A stretch of DNA of 64,000 nt from NCBI GenBank assembly GCA_001825155.1, contig MHVH01000005.1, positions 168,501-232,500 on the forward strand, read 5' to 3'. Positions 5,828 through 25,393 of the stretch are shown piece by piece. The DNA is from Candidatus Zambryskibacteria bacterium RIFCSPHIGHO2_01_FULL_46_25 (GTDB lineage: Bacteria > Patescibacteriota > Minisyncoccia > Phycocordibacterales > Zambryskibacteraceae). Position numbers and translations under genes: made by a program. The notes under the pieces are model-generated. The model was not told the origin of the DNA and did no database searches. It saw only the letters and a program-made list of their open reading frames with translations. How positions within the stretch are numbered: the first letter of the stretch is position 1; the number at the start of each line of letters is the position of its first letter.

Positions 5828-7084
5828 TTGTATGTTGGTTCGACTCCAACGGGATCGTCTATTGAAAAACATCTCAATTTACATTCAGTTTTCTCCTATT
5901 CAGAGTTTGGAAAAGCTTTTAACAAGCTAAAGAAAAAGAACAAATATAGGCAGACATCTGCAGATTTTAATTTAAAAGACCGATATTCCGACAAAAGAAT
6001 TCTAAACGCCCTAGGGAAATTCATACAGAAACATTCGAGCGATCAGGCAAGAGGATTGTATAGAGAAGTAGAAATCTACTCTCTTAGGCCATATAGGGGA
6101 ATTTCGATTTTAAAAAAGAGCGGGAAATATCGCCCACTTCTTGTTCCCTCTCCTTTGGATAGATTGGTATTTTTAACTGCGCTTCCAAGAATAAAAGGGT
6201 TGATTTATAAGAGACTTTTGAAATTTTCTGCTTTAGGGGTAGGCGTTAAGAGTGAGGAGGGATTAAAAATTACCATTGTATCTAATAAAATATTTGAAAA
6301 GGTTAAGCAGAAGAAAACGAGATATGTCCTTGCCTTAGATTTCCAGGACTTTTTCTCAACTATTCACAGAGATAAGCTGCACAGAAAACTTAAAACTATT
6401 TTTTCAAAAGCTGAAGAAAAAGAACTTTTGAAACTTTTAGTCTTGTCGATAAATAATCCTATAGAATCAGATGATCTTTTTAAAGCAAAATTTAAGAATC
6501 TTAATCTCGAGACAAGCGGAATTCCTCAAGGACTAGCGTACTCTCCATTACTAGCTAGTTTCTTTGCTACAAGTCTGGACGCCTTAGTGAGAAGAAACAA
6601 GTCAGTAATCTCGTACCGTTATTTAGATGATATGGTAATCATAGGGCCAAACAAAAGAAATCTTATAAAAATCTATAGAAAAATAAAAAGTTTTTCAGCT
6701 AAATTGGGTCTGAAGCTCCACGACCTTGGCGGAAAGACAAAAATATTACCAGTTATAAATCCCGATGATTCTTTCGATTTTCTCGGCATCTCTTTTTCTA
6801 AATCAGGTAAGCATATTACCAATCAAGCTATTAAGAAGTTTTTAGAAACCATAAAGACAGAAATCCTTACTGGGCGAGGATTAAGAACTTCTCCAGATAA
6901 TATCAAGAGGGTTTTTAAAGAATATGTCACTGGATGGAAACAATACTACTCGGCCATCTGCCCAGAGCACTATAAGGAAATAGCCCCAATTTTAGCAAAT
7001 GAAGTTCGTACTTATATGCTGAAAAAGAAAGCTTGGAAAAGGATATACCTAAGTGATGAAAATTTGTTTAACTTGAAGGAGTGA
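5828..7084 (+). CDS. reverse transcriptase (group II intron/retron-like prokaryotic RT; no intron RNA domains recognised)
   Basis: RT motifs RPLLVPSPLDRLV (RT2), LDFQDFFSTI (RT3), GIPQGLAYSPLLAS (RT4), YRYLDDMVII (RT5, YxDD), and thumb motif YVTGWKQYY; ORF opens with TTG, true start uncertain. Confidence 0.75.
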   Translation: MYVGSTPTGSSIEKHLNLHSVFSYSEFGKAFNKLKKKNKYRQTSADFNLKDRYSDKRILNALGKFIQKHSSDQARGLYREVEIYSLRPYRGISILKKSGKYRPLLVPSPLDRLVFLTALPRIKGLIYKRLLKFSALGVGVKSEEGLKITIVSNKIFEKVKQKKTRYVLALDFQDFFSTIHRDKLHRKLKTIFSKAEEKELLKLLVLSINNPIESDDLFKAKFKNLNLETSGIPQGLAYSPLLASFFATSLDALVRRNKSVISYRYLDDMVIIGPNKRNLIKIYRKIKSFSAKLGLKLHDLGGKTKILPVINPDDSFDFLGISFSKSGKHITNQAIKKFLETIKTEILTGRGLRTSPDNIKRVFKEYVTGWKQYYSAICPEHYKEIAPILANEVRTYMLKKKAWKRIYLSDENLFNLKE

Positions 7085-7191
7085 TATAATAAACTCGCAC
7101 TCAACCGATAATAAGTTGTCTTTTTAAATGGCCGTCTCGGGTCAGCTTAAGGCAACTTAGGTTGAGTGCACCGGGGCGGCCATTTAAGTTT

Positions 7192-8721
7192 ATGAAATAC
7201 TTTTTATACGTTAGAAAATCCACCGATGTTGAAGACAAGCAAGTGCTTTCTATTGAAGCGCAGCTTTCGGAATTGAGAACTATTGCTAAACATGATGAGC
7301 TAGAAATCGTAGAGGAGTTTATAGAAAAGCGAAGTGCAAAAGTTCCAGGCAGATCAATTTTTGAAGAAATGCTCCGCCGGATTGAAAAGGACGAAGCCGA
7401 AGGAATTATTTGCTGGAAAGTAGATAGACTTTCCAGAAATCCTGTAGACAGCGGACGTATCAGTTGGATGCTTCAGCAAAACATCATTCAAAAAGTTATC
7501 ACACACGATAGAGTTTATCTCCCGCAAGACAATGTGCTTATTATGTCTGTAGAGTTCGGGATGGCTAATCAATACATCAGAGATTTGAGTGTAAATACCA
7601 AACGAGGTTTAAGAGCCAAAGCCAGACAAGGTATTTACCCCAGTGTTGCGCCCCTAGGATATTTAAATGATGTAAGGAGTAAGACGATAGTTATAGATAG
7701 GAAGAAAAGCCTTATAGTCCGTAAAGCATTTGAGATGTATGCGGAAAATAAATATAACCAAGAAGATATAGCCAACTTTCTTTTCAAGAATGGTATTCAA
7801 AGCAGATTAATAAGAAGACCAGACGCAACTGGCGGTAAGCCCTTGAAGAGAGACCAGATTAAGTGGATCTTAGAAAGCCCTTTTTATTATGGAAACTTCT
7901 ACTATGCTGGCGAAGTTTGGGAAGGAAAACACAAACCCTTAATTTCAAAAAAGCTCTGGGATAAAGTCCAAGAAGTTTTGAAATTAAGAGGAAGGGTAAA
8001 GAAAGTTAAGACAGAACCTAAAGCATTTTCCGGACTTCTTTATTGTGGAGAATGTGGCTGTTCTATTACTGCCGAAAGACAAAAGGGACATATTTATTAT
8101 CGTTGCACCAAAAAGAAAGGTAAATGCTCACAGCCCTTTACTAGAGAGGAAGTTTTAGACTCCCAACTTTCGGCAATACTAACTTCCTTAGTATTGCCGA
8201 GTGAATGGGCTAAAGAATTAAATAAGATGTTGGATAAAGACGAAGCGGACATCACTCAATCCGCGACGGCGTCCGTCCAAGCTCTGCGGTCAGATGCGAT
8301 GGAGATAAACTCCAAGCTTGCCCGCATTACAGACCTCTTTGTGGAACAAGACATTGAGCGTGGAGAATACCTGGATAGGAAGAAAGCTCTAATGTCTCAA
8401 AAGAAGTCTGTAGAGGAACAAATCCTCTTACTTGAACGAGACGCTGCTAGATGGCTCGAACCGATGCGAGAATGGCTAAAGGTGGCTTCTAGCCTAGCTG
8501 AAGCCGCGCAATCGAACGACCTCCCCTCCAGAAAATCATACCTCCAGAAAATCTTTGGCTCGAACCTCACACTCCACTCACGCGAAGCGCGCGCCGTGCC
8601 CGAAATTCCTTGGGTTTTCATCAGCCAAGCCAAATCCGAATTATCCGAATTGGGCTTTATCCCATCTATGGTGGGTCAGGTGGGAATCGAACCCACATCC
8701 GCAGAGCGGACAACATTTTAA
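7192..8721 (+). CDS. large serine recombinase (resolvase/invertase N-domain, recombinase domain, zinc ribbon); ORF reads through the inverted repeat into tRNA-Leu
   Basis: MKYFLYVRKSTDVEDKQVLSIEAQ with catalytic-Ser context; zinc ribbon CGECGCS...YYRCTKKKGKC; ORF track starts at TTG 7162, ATG at 7192 is preferred; last ~50 aa are encoded by the inverted repeat and tRNA. Confidence 0.8.
   Translation: MKYFLYVRKSTDVEDKQVLSIEAQLSELRTIAKHDELEIVEEFIEKRSAKVPGRSIFEEMLRRIEKDEAEGIICWKVDRLSRNPVDSGRISWMLQQNIIQKVITHDRVYLPQDNVLIMSVEFGMANQYIRDLSVNTKRGLRAKARQGIYPSVAPLGYLNDVRSKTIVIDRKKSLIVRKAFEMYAENKYNQEDIANFLFKNGIQSRLIRRPDATGGKPLKRDQIKWILESPFYYGNFYYAGEVWEGKHKPLISKKLWDKVQEVLKLRGRVKKVKTEPKAFSGLLYCGECGCSITAERQKGHIYYRCTKKKGKCSQPFTREEVLDSQLSAILTSLVLPSEWAKELNKMLDKDEADITQSATASVQALRSDAMEINSKLARITDLFVEQDIERGEYLDRKKALMSQKKSVEEQILLLERDAARWLEPMREWLKVASSLAEAAQSNDLPSRKSYLQKIFGSNLTLHSREARAVPEIPWVFISQAKSELSELGFIPSMVGQVGIEPTSAERTTF
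8581..8672. repeat. right copy of the perfect 92-bp inverted repeat (partner 5331-5422); extended similarity to about 8490
   Basis: Exact reverse complement of 5331-5422; lies within the recombinase 3' coding region and ends at the CCA of tRNA-Leu. Confidence 0.9.
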
Positions 8722-8754
8722 GTGTTGCGCGTATACCTATTCCGCCACTGACCC
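8669..8754 (-). tRNA. tRNA-Leu (anticodon TAA), CCA encoded
   Basis: Manual cloverleaf: acceptor GGGTCAG/CTGACCC, anticodon arm CAACA-CTTAAAA-TGTTG, long variable arm, T-arm GGGTTCGATTCCC. Confidence 0.85.
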
Positions 8755-8756
8755 AG

Positions 8757-8829
8757 AGGCGTAGAGGGGAATCGAACCCCTGCAATAACAGTTTTGCAGA
8801 CTGTCGCGTTACCACTTCGCCACTACGCC
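8757..8829 (-). tRNA. tRNA-Cys (anticodon GCA)
   Basis: Acceptor GGCGTAG/CTACGCC, anticodon loop CTGCAAA, T-arm GGGGTTCGATTCCCC. Confidence 0.8.
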
Positions 8830-8900
8830 AAAACCACTATTACCATACCATAAAATGTTGAAAAACGGTTCGATTAATGAGATACTATGCTTTGTTTGTT

Positions 8901-8973
8901 GCGCCCATAGCTCAGCTGGTAGAGCAGATCCCTCTTAAGGATAAGGTCCAAGGTTCGATCCCTTGTGGGCGCA
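8901..8973 (+). tRNA. tRNA-Lys (anticodon CTT)
   Basis: Acceptor GCGCCCA/TGGGCGC, D-arm GCTCAGCTGGTAGAGC, anticodon loop CTCTTAA, T-arm CAAGGTTCGATCCCTTG. Confidence 0.8.
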
Positions 8974-8977
8974 CAAT

Positions 8978-9059
8978 GCCGAGGTGGCGAAATTGGCAGA
9001 CGCGCCAGCTTTAGGAGCTGGTACCGCAAGGTGTGGAGGTTCAAGTCCTCTCCTCGGCA
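8978..9059 (+). tRNA. tRNA-Leu (anticodon TAG)
   Basis: Acceptor GCCGAGG/CCTCGGC, anticodon arm CCAGC-TTTAGGA-GCTGG, long variable arm, T-arm GGAGGTTCAAGTCCTCT. Confidence 0.85.
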
Positions 9060-9089
9060 CACTGCATTTATGAAGAAAGAAAAATAAAC

Positions 9090-10973
9090 ATGCTAGAAGG
9101 AACAATACGCGTAACCGGCAAGGGTGTCGGCTATTTTGAGGACCCGCAAGGCGGAGACGACTTCGAAATACAGCCGGAGAATCTTAAGGCCGCCTTAAAC
9201 CGCGATACCGTAATCGTCGAACCTACCGGCAAAGAAATTTATGGTCGGAAACAGGCCAAAGTGGTCGAGATTCTCGAGCGCCACAAGACGGAATTCGTCG
9301 GCACTTTCGATGATGGCTTCATGATTCCGGATGATAAGCGGATGTACCGAGACATCTTTGTCGAGGATCCTAAGGGAGCAAAAAATGGCGACAAGATACA
9401 AGTCCATCTCACGTCCTGGGAAGACCCTTCCAAAAGCCCCAAGGGCGAGATACTCCGCGTCATTGGGCGCGCCGGCGAGCACAATGCCGAGATGGTCGGC
9501 ATTGTTTTGGAAAGTGGATTCGAAATCGACTTCCCTCCCGAAGTGGAAAGCGAAGCCGAGGCTTGGAAGGAAAGATATGAAAAGGAGGATAAGCTCAAGA
9601 ATCGGCGTGACTTTAGTGAAGTCACGACCTTCACCATCGACCCGGCGGACGCCAAGGACTTCGACGACGCTATTTCTTTGAAAAAACTTGAGAACGGTGA
9701 TTATGAAATCGGCGTGCATATCGCCGACGTATCCCACTTCGTTACTCCCGGCACAGCGCTTGACAAAGAAGCGGTAAAAAGAGGCACGTCCATCTACCTC
9801 GTCGACCGCACCATTCCCATGCTTCCGGAAGTGCTTAGTAACGACCTTTGCTCGCTTAATCCCAACGAACCCAAATATGCCTTCTCCGCCGTCTTCGTCA
9901 TGGATAAGAATGCGAAGGTGAAGGACCGCTGGTTCGGCAAAACTCTTATCGAGTCGGATAAAAGATTTACCTACGAAGAAGCGCAGGAAATATTGGATAA
10001 AAAGTCCGGAACATATTACGAAGAATTGAAAACCTTAAACGACCTGGCCTACAAACTTCGCGAAGAGAAGTTCAGGAAGGGCGCCATTGAATTCGAAACC
10101 GAGGAAGTGAAGTTCGAGCTCGACGAGCTCGGCAAGCCCATACGCGTATACAAGAAGGAACGCAAGGACACGCACAAACTGGTGGAAGATTTCATGCTCC
10201 TCGCAAATCGAGAGGTGGCGACACACATGCATACGGCATACAAAAGCAATGCGCGCGCCGCTTTTGTCTATCGCATACACGACGCTCCGGACAGAGAAAA
10301 AATCGTGAATCTTGCCACGTTTGTAAAAGCACTTGGCTTCGAACTCAAGAACAGGGACGGCGAGACTACGGCGGAAGATATTACAAAGATGCTCAAGTCA
10401 GTCGAAGGCACTCCGACAGAAATGTTGGTAAAAACTGCCGCCATCCGCTCCATGAGCAAGGCCATTTACTCAACCAGTAATATCGGCCACTTCGGTCTGG
10501 CATTTGAATATTATACTCACTTCACCTCCCCCATCCGCCGATATCCCGACCTTATGGTGCATCGTCTACTTCAGCGCTTCATCGAGCAGGGGCAAATTGA
10601 GCAGGACGAGATTATCAAATACCAGAGACTCTGCGACGACTCTTCTGAGCGCGAGATGGAAGCGGCCGAGGCGGAGCGCGCATCTATCAAGTACAAGCAA
10701 GTAGAGTACATGCAGGAGCACGTGGGCGAAGAATTCGACGCTATCATCTCCGGCGTCTCGGAGTGGGGCATTTATGTAGAAGAAGTGAATACCAAGGCTG
10801 AAGGTATGGTCAAGCTCCGTGATATGAAAGACGATTTTTATGAATTAAATGAGAAGCTCTACGCCATCGTCGGTCAGAAATCCGGCAAGAAATACTCCCT
10901 CGGCGATAAAGTCCGCGTCAAACTCATCGCCTCAGATCCAGAGAGAAAGACTCTTGACTTTGCATTTGTTTAG
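9090..10973 (+). CDS. rnr: ribonuclease R (VacB/RNase II family 3'-5' exoribonuclease)
   Basis: RNB-domain motifs HFGLAFEYYTHFTSPIRRYPDLMVHR, C-terminal S1-like domain; start moved to ATG 9090 to avoid overlap with tRNA-Leu. Confidence 0.85.
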   Translation: MLEGTIRVTGKGVGYFEDPQGGDDFEIQPENLKAALNRDTVIVEPTGKEIYGRKQAKVVEILERHKTEFVGTFDDGFMIPDDKRMYRDIFVEDPKGAKNGDKIQVHLTSWEDPSKSPKGEILRVIGRAGEHNAEMVGIVLESGFEIDFPPEVESEAEAWKERYEKEDKLKNRRDFSEVTTFTIDPADAKDFDDAISLKKLENGDYEIGVHIADVSHFVTPGTALDKEAVKRGTSIYLVDRTIPMLPEVLSNDLCSLNPNEPKYAFSAVFVMDKNAKVKDRWFGKTLIESDKRFTYEEAQEILDKKSGTYYEELKTLNDLAYKLREEKFRKGAIEFETEEVKFELDELGKPIRVYKKERKDTHKLVEDFMLLANREVATHMHTAYKSNARAAFVYRIHDAPDREKIVNLATFVKALGFELKNRDGETTAEDITKMLKSVEGTPTEMLVKTAAIRSMSKAIYSTSNIGHFGLAFEYYTHFTSPIRRYPDLMVHRLLQRFIEQGQIEQDEIIKYQRLCDDSSEREMEAAEAERASIKYKQVEYMQEHVGEEFDAIISGVSEWGIYVEEVNTKAEGMVKLRDMKDDFYELNEKLYAIVGQKSGKKYSLGDKVRVKLIASDPERKTLDFAFV

Positions 10974-11344: not shown

Positions 11345-11911
11345 TTATATAAGGTCGAAATCCATTCTTAAATATTTATCATTCTCTATTTGATCAGCGA
11401 TGATGTAGAGCATATTCTTCCCTATCCCATAATTGGTCTTGAGGAGTCCGATGACATCTTCGCAATCATAAGGATAAACCCAGACGCTGTCCTGTAGTCT
11501 TAAAAAACCCGACGATTTGAGTATCTCCCTCACCTCGTCTCTCACTTTCTTCATCTTTTCCGGAATATCGAAAATTATGATCCTCCATTTTCTATCCCAT
11601 CTTTTTGGCTTAGGAATTCTATAATCATCCATTTCCCATTGGCGAAGAACCTTTTCTCCATCCGTTGTGAGAAAATATTTCCCACTTTTAAATTCCACCA
11701 ATCCTTTCCTTCTCAGGCGCGAAACCGCGGAGTATATAATATCTTTCTTTCTAGAAGATATTGGAATATCCAGATCAAGAAAATAATTCAGAACACTCGG
11801 CAAAAGGTCCGAGGAGCCCCTTCTGCCTCCAGAAGCTATCGAGACAAGAATCGCCTCCTGAACTTTCGATTTATTTATGGACTTCCTGGCTTTTCTTTCT
11901 AGCTCTCCCAT
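11345..11911 (-). CDS. PaaX-family regulator-like protein (N-terminal wHTH plus C-terminal Cas2-like/PaaX_C domain), paralog 1
   Basis: WRIIIFDIPEKMKKVRDEVREILKSSGFLRLQDSVWVYP matches the PaaX C-domain / Cas2-like pattern; 60-70% identical in the C-terminal half to ORF 22404-22976. Confidence 0.7.
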   Translation of the reverse strand: MGELERKARKSINKSKVQEAILVSIASGGRRGSSDLLPSVLNYFLDLDIPISSRKKDIIYSAVSRLRRKGLVEFKSGKYFLTTDGEKVLRQWEMDDYRIPKPKRWDRKWRIIIFDIPEKMKKVRDEVREILKSSGFLRLQDSVWVYPYDCEDVIGLLKTNYGIGKNMLYIIADQIENDKYLRMDFDLI

Positions 11912-11990: not shown

Positions 11991-14171
11991 TTATTTCGCC
12001 ACTTCCACCGCCTCATCGAATGATATGGAAAGGAGTTTGGAGATGCCATTGCCGGACATGGTGACGCCGTAGATAACGCCAGCGCGGCTCATAGTCTCGC
12101 GGTTGTGGGTTATGAGAATTAGTTGCGACTTCTCGCTAAGCAACTCCACCAAATCGCCGTACTTCTTGGAATTGGACTCATCGAGAGCGGCATCGGTCTC
12201 ATCGAGAATGATAAAAGGCGGTGGATTGACTTGCGAGATGGCAAAGATTAAGGCGATTGAAGTAAGCGCTCTTTCACCACCAGAGAGCATCATGAGATTG
12301 CGAATCTTCTTCTTCGGCAAGGAAACTTTTATATCCAACCCCTCTTCAACTTTTTCACCTTCCTCACCTTCTTCAACTGGCAACTCGTTCTTCACAAGAG
12401 TGAGATGCGCTTCCCCGCCGCCGAACATGGAGGTAAAGAGTTTGTCGAATTTCTCATTGATATTTTGGAGCCCGGTTTTGAATTCTGTCGCGAGTCTGTC
12501 TTCCAAGTCTTTTATCAAGCCGTTGAGAGATTCGGCCGACTTCTCAAGGTCGAGAAGCTCGCGCGCCAAGAAAGCGTCTCGCTCGGAAGTTTCGAGATGT
12601 TCCTTCTTCACCTCCTCAGCGCCAGCTATACTTGAGTCCTCTAGTCGTATCTTCAATCTCCCCAAAGTTCGCTTCCTCTCTTCTTGATTTACCCTGCCCT
12701 CTTCCTTGGAGAATTCCAAACCTCCATACTTCAAAACATCTCCGCCCGCCAGATGTCCAATTTCCGTAAGCTCGCGCTTGAATTCGGTTTCTTCAAGACC
12801 CACCTTCTCCTCACGCGCCTTGAGCAGACTGAGTTTCGAGCGAATACTGTTCTCCTCCGACATAATGCGGAAGACTGCTATCTGGGCAGAGCTGTCAGAA
12901 TCCTTGGCTCGCTCAACCTCCTTCTTGAGCGTCTCGTAATCTGCTTGGAGTTTCTTCTCCTTCTCTTCGGCATCCTTCTGCTTCCGCTCTACCCCCAATT
13001 TCTCTTCTCTCAGTTCTTCAATATACTTCTTGGCTTCTTCGATAATATTCGAAGCAACTGTTTCCCGTCTTTCCTTCAAGAAATTTAGAAACTTGGCTTT
13101 GATTCTCTCTAGAATCCCGGGTGCGTCCTTCTCAATCTCGATTTCTTTATAAAGCGCCTCAACATCTTTGAGCGGGATAACTTTGTGCTCATTGGAAGCG
13201 GCAAGCTCTTGCTGTTTTCTCACAATGCTCGACTGAGCATCCATCAAGCCCTCCACCCTGCCAAGCTCCCTGCTGGAAGCATCTTTGATAGCGCGAGATG
13301 CCGATAGTTCTTTCTCCAACTCGAGGATGAGATACTCCTTCTTCTCCTGCGAGCCTTGCTCCGCAAGAACTTCTTTCGCCTCCGCCAATTCTTTCTCCAA
13401 CTTCGCAAGCGAAGCACTGAGTGGCTTGCGTTCCTCTTCTATCTCTTTCTTCGCCGACGTGATATAGGAATCCTCCCGTTTGAAGTACTCAAGAGCGAGC
13501 TTCACAAGGTCTTCTCGCAGACCCTCTGTCTTGGCAAGCTTCTCCACTTGCTTCTCGAGGAAGCGCAAGTGCGGCGCAATCTCTTTTCGCAGAGCCTTAA
13601 CTTGTGCCACGTTTTCGAAAGTTTTCTTGAGCTTACGCTCACTCTCAGCTTTCTTGTATTGATAGAGCTTGAGGCCCAAAGCATCCTCGACCATTGCTTT
13701 TCTATCCTTGGGATTGGCACTCACTACCTTGTCCGCTTCGCCCTGTGAAATGATGTGGTGACCAGAAGCACCTATGTGAGCACCCGCTAGAAGCTCGATA
13801 ATATCCTTCAATCTCATCTGTGAACCGTTGATGAGATATTCGTTGAGCCCATCGCGATGCACAACACGCTCTATGGAAACTTCCGGAAAATCTATGTCGA
13901 AAATTTTTCTGGAATTGTCGAAGGTTACTTTGACCGAAGCCCTGTTCGCTCTTGGTTCGGAAGTGGCACCATTCCAGATAAGGTCCTCACCCTTCTTGCC
14001 ACGCATGCTCTTGATAGACTGCTCACCCAAAACGAAGCGGAAGGCCTCCGCCACATTGCTCTTGCCTGAGCCGTTAGGCCCCACAATGGAGGAAATAGGG
14101 GTATTGAATTCAAAAACATTCTTTTTCGCAAAAGATTTAAACCCCGATAGTTCTATCGATTTTAGATACAT
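11991..14171 (-). CDS. smc: SMC-family chromosome segregation ATPase (short form)
   Basis: Walker A GPNGSGKSN, long coiled coil, signature LSGGERALTSIAL, Walker B FIILDETDAALD. Confidence 0.75.
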   Translation of the reverse strand: MYLKSIELSGFKSFAKKNVFEFNTPISSIVGPNGSGKSNVAEAFRFVLGEQSIKSMRGKKGEDLIWNGATSEPRANRASVKVTFDNSRKIFDIDFPEVSIERVVHRDGLNEYLINGSQMRLKDIIELLAGAHIGASGHHIISQGEADKVVSANPKDRKAMVEDALGLKLYQYKKAESERKLKKTFENVAQVKALRKEIAPHLRFLEKQVEKLAKTEGLREDLVKLALEYFKREDSYITSAKKEIEEERKPLSASLAKLEKELAEAKEVLAEQGSQEKKEYLILELEKELSASRAIKDASSRELGRVEGLMDAQSSIVRKQQELAASNEHKVIPLKDVEALYKEIEIEKDAPGILERIKAKFLNFLKERRETVASNIIEEAKKYIEELREEKLGVERKQKDAEEKEKKLQADYETLKKEVERAKDSDSSAQIAVFRIMSEENSIRSKLSLLKAREEKVGLEETEFKRELTEIGHLAGGDVLKYGGLEFSKEEGRVNQEERKRTLGRLKIRLEDSSIAGAEEVKKEHLETSERDAFLARELLDLEKSAESLNGLIKDLEDRLATEFKTGLQNINEKFDKLFTSMFGGGEAHLTLVKNELPVEEGEEGEKVEEGLDIKVSLPKKKIRNLMMLSGGERALTSIALIFAISQVNPPPFIILDETDAALDESNSKKYGDLVELLSEKSQLILITHNRETMSRAGVIYGVTMSGNGISKLLSISFDEAVEVAK

Positions 14172-14189: not shown

Positions 14190-14891
14190 TTATTTCCAGC
14201 CTTTCTTTTCTAGAGCATCACGAGCGGCCTCTTGTTCTGCATCTTGCTTCGACTTCCCTTCTCCCTCGCCGTAAACCTCTCTACCGACGGAGACAGAGAC
14301 GGTGAAATGCTTGTCATGGTCTGGTCCGGATTCCCTGACTGTTTTATATGCAGGAGTTAATCCCATTAACTCCTGTGCCTTCTCTTGAAAAAGAGATTTT
14401 GCGTCTATCCAAGTACCGTCTGAGACAATTTCTTCCATAAGCGGAGCAATGTGTTTGAGTATAAAATCTTTTGCCGCTTCGTAATCTCGGTCTATGTAAA
14501 TCGCGCCAATGAGCGCCTCAAGCGTATTCGCCAGAATATAGGTACGGGCGCGACCGATATCTTTGCCTTCCCCCCGGGAAAGCAAAAGGAAATCATTTAC
14601 CCCCAGCGCTTGCGCCACCTTCGCGCAAGTCTCCGCATTGACGAGAGCGGAACGAAGAGCGGTCATCTCCCCTTCGCTAGCCTCTTTCATCCTGCCGAAG
14701 AGATAGTTGGTAATAACAAGCTCAAGGACCGCATCGCCGAGGAACTCCAGGCGCTCATTATGAGCAAGGCCGGATCCGCCAGCTGGCGGACGGTTCTCGT
14801 TTATATATGAGCGGTGAGTGAAGGCCTGTTTGAGCAGGCTTTTGTCCTTGAACATGATTCCCGCTGTTTCTTCAAATTTGTTGAAATCCAT
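14190..14891 (-). CDS. rnc: ribonuclease III
   Basis: RNase III signature ERLEFLGDAVLELVI; C-terminal dsRBD; conserved rnc-smc neighbourhood. Confidence 0.9.
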   Translation of the reverse strand: MDFNKFEETAGIMFKDKSLLKQAFTHRSYINENRPPAGGSGLAHNERLEFLGDAVLELVITNYLFGRMKEASEGEMTALRSALVNAETCAKVAQALGVNDFLLLSRGEGKDIGRARTYILANTLEALIGAIYIDRDYEAAKDFILKHIAPLMEEIVSDGTWIDAKSLFQEKAQELMGLTPAYKTVRESGPDHDKHFTVSVSVGREVYGEGEGKSKQDAEQEAARDALEKKGWK

Positions 14892-14892
14892 T

Positions 14893-15804
14893 TTACTTGC
14901 CCTCAGCGAGCTTCGTTATCGCCTTGGTCACGATAGGCAGAATATCATCATAAAAGTTTAGGTCAAGGATGTCCGCCAGTTTGAACCATCTCACGTCATC
15001 GAGTCCGCCCTTCTCCTCCTTCTTCTCGAGAGTCAATTCCATAAACGGCGCTTCGGCCATATAGTAATTAATTTCTTTCATCATCTTGCCTTTTTCCGGA
15101 TGGAAGGTGGAGTAGGAGTTGCTGCCAATATTTTCCTTGACCTCAATCGGGACACCTAGTTCTAATGGCACCTTGCGGCGTAAACATTCAACATCGCTTT
15201 CACCTTCATTTAGACGACCTTTCGTAAGTGTCCAGTGACCGAACACATCATGCACAAGCGCCACATAAACTTCCCCTTCATGCCTGGCAAATACAGCCGC
15301 GCCGGCAAGTTTCTCTACGGGCAACTGGTCTAGAGGCACGTTGCCGAATTTTTTCTTTGGCTTCGGCTGGTCGTTTTTCCCCGGTTCGCCCATCTCCTTG
15401 TATACCGCGCCGAGAACACCGTTAATGAATCTGCCGGAAGTCTCTCCGCCGAACTGCTTGGCAAGCTCTATAGCCTCGTTGATAGCCACCTTGGGCGGAA
15501 CTTCTTTTCTATCGGCGAAAAGAAGTTCCGCCAGCCCTATCCTCAAAATATTCCTATCGACCGGCGCGATCTTCTCCAGAGGCCAGTCCGGAGCCGCTTT
15601 GGCTATGAGATTGTCGAGGTCCTTCTGCTTATCTAAAACAAGATTAAGAAGCCGTTCCATGAAAGGCCGGTCGTTACTGCCCGGCGCGAACTCGGTAATA
15701 TTTTTCTCAAAAATCGTCCTAATCTCCTCGATGCTGCGTTTCTCAAAATCCCACTCAAAAAGTGTTTGCAAAACTATCGAACGAGACAGATGTCGTTGTG
15801 ACAT
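14893..15804 (-). CDS. nusB: NusB antitermination factor fused to a C-terminal Nudix-like hydrolase domain
   Basis: N-terminal NusB motifs (RNILRIGLAELLF, GETSGRFINGVLG); C-terminal GHWTLTKGRLNEGESDVECLRRKVPLELG is a Nudix-box-like motif. Confidence 0.7.
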   Translation of the reverse strand: MSQRHLSRSIVLQTLFEWDFEKRSIEEIRTIFEKNITEFAPGSNDRPFMERLLNLVLDKQKDLDNLIAKAAPDWPLEKIAPVDRNILRIGLAELLFADRKEVPPKVAINEAIELAKQFGGETSGRFINGVLGAVYKEMGEPGKNDQPKPKKKFGNVPLDQLPVEKLAGAAVFARHEGEVYVALVHDVFGHWTLTKGRLNEGESDVECLRRKVPLELGVPIEVKENIGSNSYSTFHPEKGKMMKEINYYMAEAPFMELTLEKKEEKGGLDDVRWFKLADILDLNFYDDILPIVTKAITKLAEGK

Positions 15805-15835
15805 AAAGAACTAAAGAGCTTATGTTTATATAAAT

Positions 15836-16057
15836 TTAACGCGCGTTTTCCGCTTCCTTCGTCTTCTTGGCTCGCTTCTCGATCTTGGCGGAGAGATTGA
15901 CCACCTTCCTGCCGCGATACGTGCCGGTAGCCGGAGACATCCTGTGGCGCAAGTGCGTATTGCCCTGCTCGTCTTTCGACAAAGCCGGGTTCTTGAGCCT
16001 ATGGTGAGAGCGCCGACTGTTCGTCTGCGACCTCGTATGTCTCATTCGGACTACCAT
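15836..16057 (-). CDS. rpmF: 50S ribosomal protein L32
   Basis: MRHTRSQTNSRRSHHRLK...HLRHR...YRGRKV is typical of bL32. Confidence 0.75.
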   Translation of the reverse strand: MVVRMRHTRSQTNSRRSHHRLKNPALSKDEQGNTHLRHRMSPATGTYRGRKVVNLSAKIEKRAKKTKEAENAR

Positions 16058-16144
16058 GACTCTACATTAGCATAAATATGGCAAAAAGAAAGGACCCGGC
16101 AGCTACAGCCGCCGGGCCACTCATGAGACTGTGGTTCGAGAGTT

Positions 16145-16603
16145 TTATACTGTCACTCCCCGTGCTCGAAGGGTCTCTACCGCCGCACGATATGCCCAGA
16201 ACTGAACTGGGGCGATCATGCTGCGCAGACGTCTTACCGACACCCAACGTGGCGCCGACATCTCGTCCCCTTGAGCCTCTAGTGGTCTCGTATGCAATTC
16301 GCCGAGACAGTCGCTCAAAGATATGAGGAAGGCGTACTTGATGTGGTGGGTTCCCTTCTTCGCAATCTCTTCCGTGTCGACTGCCAGAAGCCCTGTTTCT
16401 TCCTGGAGCTTCCGGACACTCGTCTCTTCACTCGATTCCCCGAACTCACCGGACCCGCTGGTGCCGGTCGGGAATCGAACTTCCCACCTGCTTTTTTTGC
16501 CTGTGTCAGGATCCGTTGAACGATAATCATGAACGAGCATCTCGAGCTCGTTATCAGAATTAACGCGCCAGACCACATTACAGGCAGAGTGTGTCATGAG
16601 CAT
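16145..16603 (-). CDS. Nudix hydrolase
   Basis: Nudix box GSGEFGESSEETSVRKLQEETGL; locally GC-rich, with spurious overlapping ORFs on the other strand. Confidence 0.55.
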   Translation of the reverse strand: MLMTHSACNVVWRVNSDNELEMLVHDYRSTDPDTGKKSRWEVRFPTGTSGSGEFGESSEETSVRKLQEETGLLAVDTEEIAKKGTHHIKYAFLISLSDCLGELHTRPLEAQGDEMSAPRWVSVRRLRSMIAPVQFWAYRAAVETLRARGVTV

Positions 16604-16642
16604 CGCTCCACCCTATTCCTTTCTACTTCTTACTATACTACC

Positions 16643-17233
16643 TTACGGTGTAAATGTCAATCTCTTTGTAAAGCTCCTCCTATGTAGCTCTGTTAAGCCA
16701 TATTTTTTGATAGCTTTCCGATGAACCAACGTGCCGTAACCTTTATGCAAATCGAAGCGGTATTTGGGATATTTTTTAGAAAATTTGACCATCTTTCTAT
16801 CGCGAATCACCTTGGCGCAAATTGAAGCGAGGGAAATTATGGGAATTTTCTCATCCCCTCTTATGACCGTGAGCTGGTGCTTGAATTCCGGCGGAGCCTT
16901 GAGTGCACCGTCGAGGAATATCTGAGAATCTTGAGTAATTCCCAAACCCTTCAAAACTCTTTTGATACCGAGGCGAATGGCGTAAGCGATGCCATGCTTG
17001 TCTATAATCTTTTCCGAAATGAGAGAGACGTGGAAATCGAGTTCACCCCTCTTTCTTGCTTCTTGCGCTAAAGCAAACCACAGTTCCCTTTCTTCCGCTG
17101 TAAGCTGTTTGGAATCTTTTATTCCCTTGAAAAATTTTTTATTAAACTTTTCCGGAATCCTTACCGCCCCGACTGCCACCGGCCCGGCCAAGGGTCCCCT
17201 CCCCGCTTCATCTATGCCTACGATATGACTCAT
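16643..17233 (-). CDS. rnhB: ribonuclease HII
   Basis: MSHIVGIDEAGRGPLAGPVAVGAV is the canonical RNase HII N-terminus. Confidence 0.9.
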   Translation of the reverse strand: MSHIVGIDEAGRGPLAGPVAVGAVRIPEKFNKKFFKGIKDSKQLTAEERELWFALAQEARKRGELDFHVSLISEKIIDKHGIAYAIRLGIKRVLKGLGITQDSQIFLDGALKAPPEFKHQLTVIRGDEKIPIISLASICAKVIRDRKMVKFSKKYPKYRFDLHKGYGTLVHRKAIKKYGLTELHRRSFTKRLTFTP

Positions 17234-22403: not shown

Positions 22404-22976
22404 ATGGGAAAGCTAGAAGAAATCAGTAAGAAAAATACCCGAAAGACGAGAATCCACGAAACTCTCCTTCTTGCGCTAGTCTCGGGCGGAAGAAGGGGTG
22501 GAGATATACTGATAAGGCAAGTGGTTGATTCACTTCTTAAAACCGACTTCTCCCTCACTTCCCCACGCATAAGCGACACAGTGAAGTCTGCTGCGCAACG
22601 CTTGAGCCGGAGAGGTTTAATAGCATTCGAGGACGGACATTACTCACCCACCGTAAGCGGGAAGAAACTATTGGCAAAATGGCAGAGAACAAATTATAAA
22701 ATCAAAATCCCGAAAAAATGGGACAAGAAGTGGCGGGTGATCATTTTTGACATACCTGAGAAGAAACGGAAAATCCGCGATCACATCAGAGAAATACTTA
22801 TTGCCACCGGGTTCATTCGGTTACAGGACAGCGTATGGGTATACCCATATGACTGTGAGGATGTAATCGGGCTTATAAAAACAGAACTGCGAATCGGTCG
22901 GTATCTTTTGTATATGATCGTCGACCAGATCGAGGACGACCGGTTCCTACGAATGGATTTCGACCTCATTCGCTAA
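22404..22976 (+). CDS. PaaX-family regulator-like protein (wHTH plus Cas2-like C-domain), paralog 2
   Basis: WRVIIFDIPEKKRKIRDHIREILIATGFIRLQDSVWVYPYDCEDVIGL; paralog of 11345-11911. Confidence 0.7.
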   Translation: MGKLEEISKKNTRKTRIHETLLLALVSGGRRGGDILIRQVVDSLLKTDFSLTSPRISDTVKSAAQRLSRRGLIAFEDGHYSPTVSGKKLLAKWQRTNYKIKIPKKWDKKWRVIIFDIPEKKRKIRDHIREILIATGFIRLQDSVWVYPYDCEDVIGLIKTELRIGRYLLYMIVDQIEDDRFLRMDFDLIR

Positions 22977-23116: not shown

Positions 23117-23482
23117 TCAGCGGTCGGCGGGAACGATCTTGATGGGAACGCCCCTCGCCGTGACGACACCCGCCTTGATCTCGCTGGAGCATCCTCGCTC
23201 CGAGCTCACGTTCCCCGCTGAGGTCGTGTAGCAAGGATTGAGCGCGCGTTCCAAGTGCTCGGGTTTGAGTCCAGGAACATCAAGTTCATACCAGCTGCGG
23301 GCGTTAACGGCAACCCACCCCGCTTCCTGCCACTGGGCAACCTCGACCTTGAGCGCGACGTTCTCCTGCTTGAGTGCCTTACTCTCAGTCTCCGCTTGAT
23401 CAGCCTTGTACGCTGCCCAGGAAGCGGTTACACACACGACCAGGAACACGACCAACAACGTATTGAATTCGTTTTTTCTCAT
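23117..23482 (-). CDS. hypothetical secreted/membrane-anchored protein with coiled-coil segment
   Basis: N-terminal hydrophobic anchor LLVVFLVVCVTASWAAY, then a coiled-coil-like KALKQENVALKVEVAQWQ. Confidence 0.45.
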   Translation of the reverse strand: MRKNEFNTLLVVFLVVCVTASWAAYKADQAETESKALKQENVALKVEVAQWQEAGWVAVNARSWYELDVPGLKPEHLERALNPCYTTSAGNVSSERGCSSEIKAGVVTARGVPIKIVPADR

Positions 23483-24925: not shown

Positions 24926-25393
24926 CTATTTAATGTCGATAATCTTATACGACATTGTACCACTTGGCGTTTCGAATGAGAACGTGTCCCCCTTCTTCTT
25001 ACCGAGAGCGGCTTGGCCCAAGGGAGAACGCGTCGAGATAAGGCCCTTGGCGGCATCGGCCTCTTCCGAACCCACGATGGTAAGAGATTTATTGGTTTTA
25101 TCCGACTCACGCTCGACGATGATGGCCGACCCGACGCTCACCAGGTTGGTATTCTGCGTCGAGACAATGGAAGCAGTTTTCAGAATTTTCTCGAGCCTGT
25201 TGATTCTGTCCTCGAGCACCGCCTGGCTGTCGCGAGCCTCTTGATACTCATGATTCTCCGAGAGGTCGCCAAGAGATTTGGCATATTCGAGCGCGTCCGC
25301 AATTTCCTTGCGCTTGACGGTTTTCAAATGATTCAGCTCTTTTTCCAGCTCGGCGAACTTGTCTTTTGTCAGATATTCTTGGCTTACCTCCAT
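24926..25393 (-). CDS. greA: transcription elongation factor GreA
   Basis: N-terminal coiled coil plus C-terminal FKBP-like fold; sequence typical of GreA. Confidence 0.85.
   Translation of the reverse strand: MEVSQEYLTKDKFAELEKELNHLKTVKRKEIADALEYAKSLGDLSENHEYQEARDSQAVLEDRINRLEKILKTASIVSTQNTNLVSVGSAIIVERESDKTNKSLTIVGSEEADAAKGLISTRSPLGQAALGKKKGDTFSFETPSGTMSYKIIDIK

Follow-up and report, generated by a model that had tools for sequence, protein, structure and literature searches.

The 64,000-nucleotide stretch of Candidatus Zambryskibacteria bacterium RIFCSPHIGHO2_01_FULL_46_25 considered here (referred to as the window, whose numbering is used for all coordinates) encodes a 303-amino acid (aa) protein in which the antitermination factor NusB is joined to a Nudix fold. 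It is near-certain, as regards both identity and architecture, that this protein consists of a genuine orthologous NusB and a flexibly tethered Nudix fold of the type found in Aquifex aq_158, a hydrolase of dinucleoside polyphosphates (ApnA) for which activity on RNA 5' ends has been described. The fusion is the fixed, ancestral form of NusB across a large Parcubacteria clade that includes Zambryskibacteria and their relatives. Within this clade, the Nudix domain is strongly constrained outside its catalytic glutamates, and for two of these glutamates selection has been relaxed or altered in the fused proteins specifically. NusB, a universal and well-studied factor, has so far been regarded as an adaptor with a single domain; a fusion of this kind, shared by a whole clade, would physically link antitermination and ribosomal RNA (rRNA) synthesis to the chemistry of RNA 5' ends, namely their triphosphate or non-canonical cap status.

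Domain architecture of the fusion protein

The original prediction had described a nusB open reading frame (ORF) of 303 aa with a C-terminal Nudix extension carrying a degenerate box, and had proposed a domain search as a check. Profile hidden Markov models (HMMs) indeed support both a NusB and a NUDIX domain in this protein, these being its only Pfam matches, and the altered residues of the box (RE to RK and EE to LE) can be read directly in the translation. The gene and its parts, which like the whole gene row lie on the minus strand, are as follows.

14893-15804 (-): nusB::nudix fusion gene, 303 aa; ORF with stop codon at 14893-14895; Pfam NusB and NUDIX
15385-15804 (-): NusB domain, residues 1-140, all-helical; TIGR01951, AlphaFold2 (AF2), Foldseek
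15319-15384 (-): linker, residues 141-162 (PGKNDQPKPKKKFGNVPLDQLP), about 25 aa, Lys-rich and predicted to be disordered; AF2
14896-15318 (-): Nudix-fold domain, residues 163-303, of the aq_158 (ApnA hydrolase) type; Pfam, AF2, Foldseek, profile comparison
15151-15219 (-): Nudix box, residues 196-218, non-canonical (R210-K211 ... L214-E215); read from the translation

The N-terminal half matches the Pfam NusB family (PF01029) over residues 7-136 with an E-value of 3.4e-35 (121.8 bits against a cut-off of 23.1), and it scores 130.6 bits with the NCBIfam nusB equivalog model TIGR01951, whose cut-off is 88.35. In the AF2 model, which was built from an alignment of 72 sequences, this half is made of helices spanning residues 2-138 with a predicted local distance difference test (pLDDT) score of about 86-95, and Foldseek superposes it on Aquifex NusB from the NusB-NusE-boxA complex (3r2c/3r2d) with a template modelling (TM) score of 0.89 and a root mean square deviation of 1.9. 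The C-terminal half matches Pfam NUDIX (PF00293) over residues 173-284 (E-value 1.8e-10; 41.4 bits, the gathering score being 21.1), adopts an alpha/beta fold at residues 163-301 that reaches the C-terminus, and is matched by Foldseek to more than 400 Nudix structures. Between the two halves, residues 141-152 have a pLDDT below 50 and the predicted TM score (pTM) of the whole model is 0.50, and thus no fixed orientation or packing of the domains relative to each other is predicted. The start of the linker is nevertheless distinctive, as G139-E-P-G-K143 is invariant in the 72 sequences while the remainder of the linker is less conserved than any other part of the protein. A tether of about 25 residues can reach roughly 80 Å.

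Spread and age of the fusion

Two database searches each returned at least 8000 relatives with E-values below 1e-5. Pooling the best 120 matches from each search gave 199 distinct proteins, which are 60-100% identical to the window protein, are all about 300 aa long and all contain both Pfam domains, some of them being encoded on contigs of 0.3-0.5 Mb. An identical (100%) protein is present in Parcubacteria group bacterium GW2011_GWB1_*, where it is annotated only as N utilization substance protein B-like, and those best matches that carry a source name are always called "NusB" or "N utilization substance protein B". There is thus an annotation gap, in that the named relatives in both searches are labelled as NusB only and their Nudix part goes unmentioned. 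The gene was also examined in its genomic context in the best 80 of 428 confirmed relatives, drawn from a scan of one genome per species of the Genome Taxonomy Database (GTDB). These 80 loci, which stem from independent assemblies of different species labelled as Zambryskibacteria, Parcubacteria, Paceibacterota, Minisyncoccia and, in one case, Kaiserbacteria, encode proteins 58-87% identical to that of the window, in each case as one uninterrupted ORF of 292-335 aa. Some contigs of the clade reach 0.5-0.6 Mb. Directly downstream of the fusion lies rnc, encoding RNase III, in all 80 loci (median gap 16.5 nucleotides, nt); rpmF, encoding ribosomal protein L32, lies upstream in 78, and a homologue of smc follows rnc in most of them.

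More distant members were found by searching 1.84 billion representatives at 50% identity with the Nudix part only, which gave 603 clusters with E-values below 1e-3. Sixty of the best 150 of these clusters have an N-terminal NusB, with identities of the Nudix part to that of the window going down to 28%. In two distant fusion members, with Nudix parts 28-40% identical to the window's, the order rpmF-fusion-rnc is kept, even though the Nudix part of one of them is no longer recognised by Pfam. The order kept in these distant members, together with the spread of the fusion, indicates that in this branch of the Candidate Phyla Radiation (CPR) the architecture is both ancient and fixed. A survey of CPR genomes had been suggested beforehand, and the fusion indeed turns out to be widespread in CPR/Parcubacteria; the accompanying statement that a NusB-Nudix fusion is not a standard architecture holds for bacteria at large and fails within the clade, where this is the ancestral form of NusB. 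Literature searches found no published description of a NusB-Nudix fusion, and in a large survey of the Nudix clan there is no mention of NusB (PMC5389931).

The explanation that the ORF is an artefact, in which a frameshift or an error of sequencing or assembly merged two genes, has practically no chance of being right. The junction, which had been singled out for such a check, shows neither frameshift nor stop, the ORF being uninterrupted in 80 of 80 loci and in the 199 relatives, and the invariant GEPGK motif at the junction (72 sequences) likewise speaks against an artefact. Conversely, a genuine case of unfused, neighbouring nusB and nudix genes was not found among the candidates inspected (L081, P0226, P0229 and P0248). 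In L081 (542-1459 of GCA_013565675.1, JACCDV010735530.1), a single in-frame stop replaces the invariant Tyr135 of the NusB domain (GAV*KELGEP, the asterisk marking the stop) and the linker is still in frame. Owing to this stop, gene callers list separate NusB (133 aa) and Nudix (141 aa) genes; the locus was rejected as a split state, and the stop could be a sequencing error, a mark of a pseudogene or a real fission. P0226 was likewise discarded, being cut by the end of its contig, and the stand-alone relatives P0229, on a contig of 695 bp, and P0248, in a phage-like region, are uninformative on the ancestral unfused state.

Some relatives of the fused Nudix type occur in other settings. P0248 (L084 4001-4453, on an SRR22388351 contig) is a stand-alone relative with a canonical box and 34% identity, and its neighbours are a phage-type integrase, a DNA methylase and a Phage_rep_O-like gene; these surroundings imply that relatives of the fused Nudix type also move on mobile elements. 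P0313 and P0346 (about 270-290 aa) consist of a tandem double copy of this Nudix type instead of NusB plus Nudix, and in P0300 (577 aa) and P0323 (379 aa) it forms the C-terminus of longer proteins.

Relationship of the fused Nudix domain to aq_158

The closest solved relative of the fused Nudix domain is the ApnA hydrolase aq_158 of Aquifex (3i7u), with Foldseek TM scores of 0.84-0.88. Further matches include M. tuberculosis Rv2985, Chlamydia CT771, Thermus Ndx1 and NUDT2, and the ADP-ribose-binding Nudix domain of NrtR (3gz8) is also a strong match, with an E-value of 2e-8. At the sequence level, the fused domain and aq_158 are about 24% identical. A family profile, in which distant fusions and stand-alone relatives were included, detects 3i7u with an E-value of 2.1e-25 over residues 1-127 of 134, so that the fused domain is homologous to aq_158 along its full length. 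Both have in common a W-x-[FL]-x-KG motif as well as K195, Y231, K243, Y247, D270 and Y285 (fusion numbering). The profile alignment places R46, E47, E50 and E51 of aq_158 opposite R210, K211, L214 and E215 of the fusion, and hence only one of the three catalytic glutamates of aq_158 (E47, E50 and E51) has an equivalent in the window protein, namely E51 in E215.

This relationship is of functional relevance because of what is known of the Aquifex enzyme. The protein aq_158, whose structures are 3i7u and 3i7v, hydrolyses Ap4A, Ap5A and Ap6A and has been named "Omnivore RNA pyrophosphatase" (PMC13145063, May 2026). In vitro, it converts RNA 5' ends bearing a triphosphate, a diphosphate, or 7-methylguanosine (m7G), nicotinamide adenine dinucleotide (NAD), flavin adenine dinucleotide (FAD), nucleoside tetraphosphate (Np4) or sugar caps into monophosphate ends, and its E51A mutant is inactive (PMC13145063). 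The suggestion, made from the window alone, that the fusion may tie antitermination to nucleotide hydrolysis or RNA decapping is strengthened by the homology to this enzyme.

Divergence and constraint in the Nudix box

The box of the fused domain reads G-RLNEG-E-SDVECLR-RK-V-P-LE-L-G-V and departs from the canonical GX5EX7REUXEEXGU by the changes RE to RK and EE to LE, keeping G196, E202, R210, E215 and G217. Two of the four glutamates of the box, three of which lie in the REUXEE stretch, are therefore replaced in the window's lineage, which makes hydrolysis itself doubtful for the window protein. When box states were scored at seven key positions (G196, E202, R210, E211, E214, E215 and G217), 38 of 81 close sequences had a canonical box and 11 had the RK..LE type of the window, the remainder having RG, RV, RA, DE, QE or further variants. 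One member with a canonical box is the L003 protein from MHWQ01000002.1. On a neighbour-joining tree the variant boxes are scattered, pointing to several independent changes. In a set of 200 close cluster representatives, the RK..LE type (85) and the canonical box (81) are both well represented, and the positions behave very differently from one another: E202, R210 and E215 are each kept in 199 representatives, E211 in 83 and E214 in 100.

Fusions and stand-alone relatives differ in how often the box is canonical. In the set of representatives at 50% identity, a canonical box is present in 8 of 57 fusions versus 12 of 14 clear stand-alone relatives, a contrast with a Fisher p of about 7e-7 (2e-6 with a looser definition) that is not corrected for phylogeny. 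At the same time, the domain is not decaying, since in the RK..LE group, where the RKVPLE motif is fixed, the Nudix domain is about as conserved as the NusB domain (78.9% versus 79.7% identity). About 30 residues of the Nudix domain outside the box are invariant in the 72 sequences, including HDxFGHWTxxKG, N229, Y231, P236, G239-K240, Y247, GGLDD, WF and LNFYxD. Three motifs, HDxFGHW, GGLDD and LNFYDDILP, are invariant in the fusions and missing from stand-alone relatives. The NusB-Nudix family thereby offers a natural series of canonical and degenerate boxes on one conserved scaffold, on which the question of how a hydrolase turns into a binding module can be addressed.

A proposed tethered module for RNA 5' ends and its alternatives

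As the favoured yet tentative reading, we propose that NusB tethers a Nudix module recognising 5' polyphosphates or caps to nascent transcripts containing boxA, that is, to rRNA. The NusB part, together with ribosomal protein S10, would bind boxA in the nascent rRNA leader on the elongating polymerase, and the tethered Nudix module would thereby be located near the 5' end of the same transcript, where it may recognise the terminal polyphosphate or a cap-like group. In lineages with a canonical box, the module would probably generate a 5' monophosphate, as RppH does. In the window's lineage, with its RKVPLE motif, the domain is under selection as strong as that on NusB and most likely serves chiefly to bind or hold the end, hydrolysing it weakly or not at all, as predicted from the substituted glutamates. 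The coupling of the fusion gene to rnc would suit a function in handling or processing the leader. A more elaborate version, which is on balance unlikely, would have a NusB with a partly pseudo-enzymatic Nudix "reader" enable the antitermination complex to hold both boxA and the 5' end of the pre-rRNA, looping the leader until the complementary 3' spacer has been made and RNase III, encoded directly downstream, cuts; readers with a canonical box would in addition convert the 5' end to a monophosphate. If such a reader existed, it would be a new built-in component of the machine for rRNA transcription and processing.

Several points weigh against the proposal of a 5'-end module. Nudix domains with non-canonical boxes can remain catalytic with altered chemistry, so that "binding only" is a guess and the loss of hydrolysis a prediction. 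The adjacency of nusB and rnc could be plain operon conservation, the AF2 model is silent on contacts with RNA or partner proteins, and an rRNA leader or boxA was not retrieved from these genomes. The sequence identity to aq_158 is only about 24%, the substrate preference of Nudix proteins is not reliably predictable from sequence, and the RNA activity of aq_158 has been demonstrated in vitro only (PMC13145063).

Three other explanations have to be considered alongside the proposed 5'-end module. The Nudix domain may act as a small-molecule sensor for a free nucleotide (for example Ap4A or another dinucleoside polyphosphate, NAD/ADP-ribose or (p)ppGpp), the binding of which would tune NusB, much as NrtR regulators sense ADP-ribose through their degenerate Nudix domain. 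This is an unlikely option, albeit one in keeping with the ApnA hydrolases as nearest solved relatives, with the strong match to the ADP-ribose-bound NrtR domain, with the repeated loss of catalytic residues while the putative ligand contacts shared with aq_158 are kept (K195, Y231, K243, Y247, D270 and Y285), and with the acceptance of non-enzymatic Nudix domains as a class (PMC5389931). In the flexible linker and the pTM of 0.50, however, there is no hint of allosteric contact with NusB, and the fully canonical box kept by about half of the close clade speaks for turnover more than for sensing alone. It is quite improbable, on the other hand, that the Nudix fold is a docking surface for a partner such as RNase III, RNA polymerase or S10 in which nucleotide binding is irrelevant. 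Protein-interaction roles of Nudix folds are documented (PMC5389931), and the motifs invariant in fusions and missing from stand-alone relatives, the decay of catalytic positions in most fusion lineages and the tight coupling to rnc would all suit such a scaffold; yet E202, R210 and E215 are near-invariant in the close clade and the residues common with aq_158 are kept, a pattern that is hard to explain without a phosphate or metal site.

The remaining alternative is that there is no functional coupling at all, a neighbouring housekeeping hydrolase for ApnA or nucleotide clean-up having been fused to nusB through loss of a stop codon, with co-expression as the only consequence. In reduced genomes, neighbouring genes of an operon are often fused, about 40-47% of the close relatives keep a canonical box, and the in-frame stop of L081 between the halves shows how easily the two states may interconvert. 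A free hydrolase should nevertheless keep its catalytic glutamates as the stand-alone relatives do, whereas the set is incomplete in 49 of 57 fusion representatives. Even across deep divergence, the domain has persisted with strong conservation, and the candidates for a genuinely unfused pair come down to the single stop at Y135 of L081 and the sequence cut by a contig end. Because fused copies, unlike stand-alone ones, usually lose catalytic residues and yet persist, an uncoupled fusion is disfavoured, with only a slim chance of being correct.

Comparison with known systems

The protein belongs to NusB and to the Nudix fold superfamily and is not an RppH, an NrtR or an RsmB, and each of these systems resembles it in one respect and differs in others. 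Canonical NusB (TIGR01951, PF01029; 3r2c, 3d3b, 1tzt) corresponds to residues 1-140 of the fusion, which score above the equivalog cut-off and superpose on the Aquifex protein with a TM score of 0.89, but it is a stand-alone protein of about 130-150 aa, whereas the window protein adds 163 aa of C-terminal linker and Nudix domain. E. coli without nusB is cold-sensitive and defective in rRNA processing. Similarly, aq_158 is a stand-alone enzyme of 134 aa with a canonical box, in contrast to the fused domain, which is joined to NusB, has K211 and L214 in place of E47 and E50 in the window's lineage, and has in addition its fusion-specific invariant motifs. E. coli RppH is a Nudix enzyme acting on RNA 5' ends and Np4A caps, an activity that the fused module may perform or mimic; it is nonetheless of a different subfamily, as the NCBIfam RppH model NF001936 scores the fusion at 15.5 bits (cut-off 118) and RppH ranks only 42nd-49th among the Foldseek matches.

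NrtR provides a precedent for a Nudix fold with impaired catalytic residues joined to a nucleic-acid-binding regulator. Its partner is a C-terminal winged-helix DNA-binding domain, however, whereas here the sole partner is an N-terminal NusB, which binds RNA and S10, and many members of the NusB-Nudix family still have canonical boxes. RsmB/Sun, in turn, sets a precedent in that its NusB-like domain brings an enzymatic domain, in this case an S-adenosylmethionine-dependent 5-methylcytosine (m5C) methyltransferase, to rRNA. RsmB models align only to residues 8-146 of the fusion, with 18-48 bits against cut-offs of 269-540, and the two architectures differ in their C-terminal domain (methyltransferase versus Nudix) and in the nature of the N-terminal one, a NusB-like paralogue in RsmB and an orthologous NusB here.

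The stand-alone Nudix protein

A second Nudix protein of 152 aa, which had also been noted beforehand together with the RK in its box, is encoded as described by an ORF between rnhB and rpmF, and matches PF00293 with an E-value of 1.1e-8 (35.5 bits). This protein stands apart as a fast-evolving orphan Nudix, encoded in a variable slot.

16145-16603 (-): stand-alone Nudix gene, 152 aa; ORF and Pfam NUDIX
16632-16660 (-): promoter-like site closely preceding the 152-aa Nudix gene, TTGACA-17-TATAGT with 11 of 12 matches; consensus match only
16093-16118 (-): terminator-like hairpin with an 11-bp stem containing 9 GC pairs, followed by a T-rich tail, in the gap between the 152-aa Nudix gene and rpmF; consensus match only

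Its box, G50-L72 at 16388-16456, reads G-SGEFG-E-SSEETSV-RK-L-Q-EE-T-G-L and deviates from the canonical form only by RE to RK, the EE being kept. The AF2 model has a pLDDT of 91 and matches generic Nudix folds in Foldseek with TM scores of 0.55-0.66, neither structure nor sequence comparison assigned it to a specific subfamily, and only 12 relatives were found among 5.8 billion proteins. With a promoter-like site on one side and a terminator-like hairpin on the other, the gene looks like a self-contained unit. The rnhB-rpmF slot contains a divergent Nudix family (28-53% identity, weaker by HMM) in 23 of the 80 loci (21 of the 36 closest loci and 2 of the 44 more distant ones). Of 27 members of this family, 23 match PF00293, and the box is RE..EE in most members and RK..EE in the window's subgroup. 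Depending on the locus, rnhB and rpmF are separated by anything between about 0 and about 2500 bp, and in some genomes other genes occupy the slot.

The two Nudix proteins of the window are related at the superfamily level only, and their interpretation as paralogues was rejected (BLASTP E-value 0.19, with the match confined to the box). Nor does the 152-aa protein compensate for lost catalysis in the fused domain, as 5 of 9 informative loci with RK..LE have a Nudix gene in the slot versus 16 of 26 other close loci. Despite being unrelated, both have Lys for the Glu of "RE", the broader consensus in each family being RE, and this shared substitution may be a coincidence or may reflect a common lineage-specific pressure. 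The claim that the 152-aa gene lies in a locally GC-rich patch is weak: its GC content of 54.7% compares with a mean of 48.1 +/- 6.5% for the genes of the window, several of which are richer, and, at about one standard deviation above this mean, it does not support a foreign origin. The highest GC content in the window (58%) is that of a 121-aa ORF at 23117-23482 (-), which has no Pfam match.

Gene order and other features of the window

The remaining genes of the row that includes the fusion are the following.

11991-14171 (-): smc, downstream of rnc; ORF
14190-14891 (-): rnc (RNase III); Pfam
15836-16057 (-): rpmF (ribosomal protein L32), directly upstream of the fusion and between the two Nudix ORFs; Pfam Ribosomal_L32p
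16643-17233 (-): rnhB (RNase HII), at the upstream edge of the variable slot; Pfam RNase_HII

The start codon of rnc lies 1 nt past the stop codon of the fusion, the junction reading TAA-a-ATG in the window sequence. The Pfam annotation SMC_N comes from the smc orthologue at locus L086. Within the 64-kb window, the fusion is the only NusB-like ORF and the two Nudix proteins are the only Nudix-like ones; rRNA, boxA and an S10 gene are absent from it, an Rfam scan having returned tRNAs only.

Other genes for RNA metabolism and transcription lie near the fusion operon, for instance an RNase R/II gene at 9033-10973 (+) with an RNB domain (E-value 1.5e-114) and GreA at 24926-25393 (-). Two paralogues of about 190 aa, at 11345-11911 (-) and 22404-22976 (+), have the central Cas2-like domain of PaaX (E-values of about 1e-20) and flank, on opposite strands, the block from smc to thrS that includes the NusB-Nudix operon and dnaE. 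Finally, a reverse transcriptase of 418 aa is encoded at 5828-7084 (+); it matches RVT_1 with an E-value of 2.9e-23 and resembles group II intron maturases with 127 bits, short of the cut-off of 300, and its Drt and retron matches are weak. It is followed by a large serine recombinase of 519 aa at 7162-8721 (+), the 3' end of which overlaps tRNA-Leu(taa) at 8669-8754 (-), the first member of a tRNA cluster (Leu, Cys, Lys, Leu) spanning 8669-9060. Beside the tRNA genes, the reverse transcriptase and the recombinase may thus form either a mobile element that has integrated there or a diversity-generating element.

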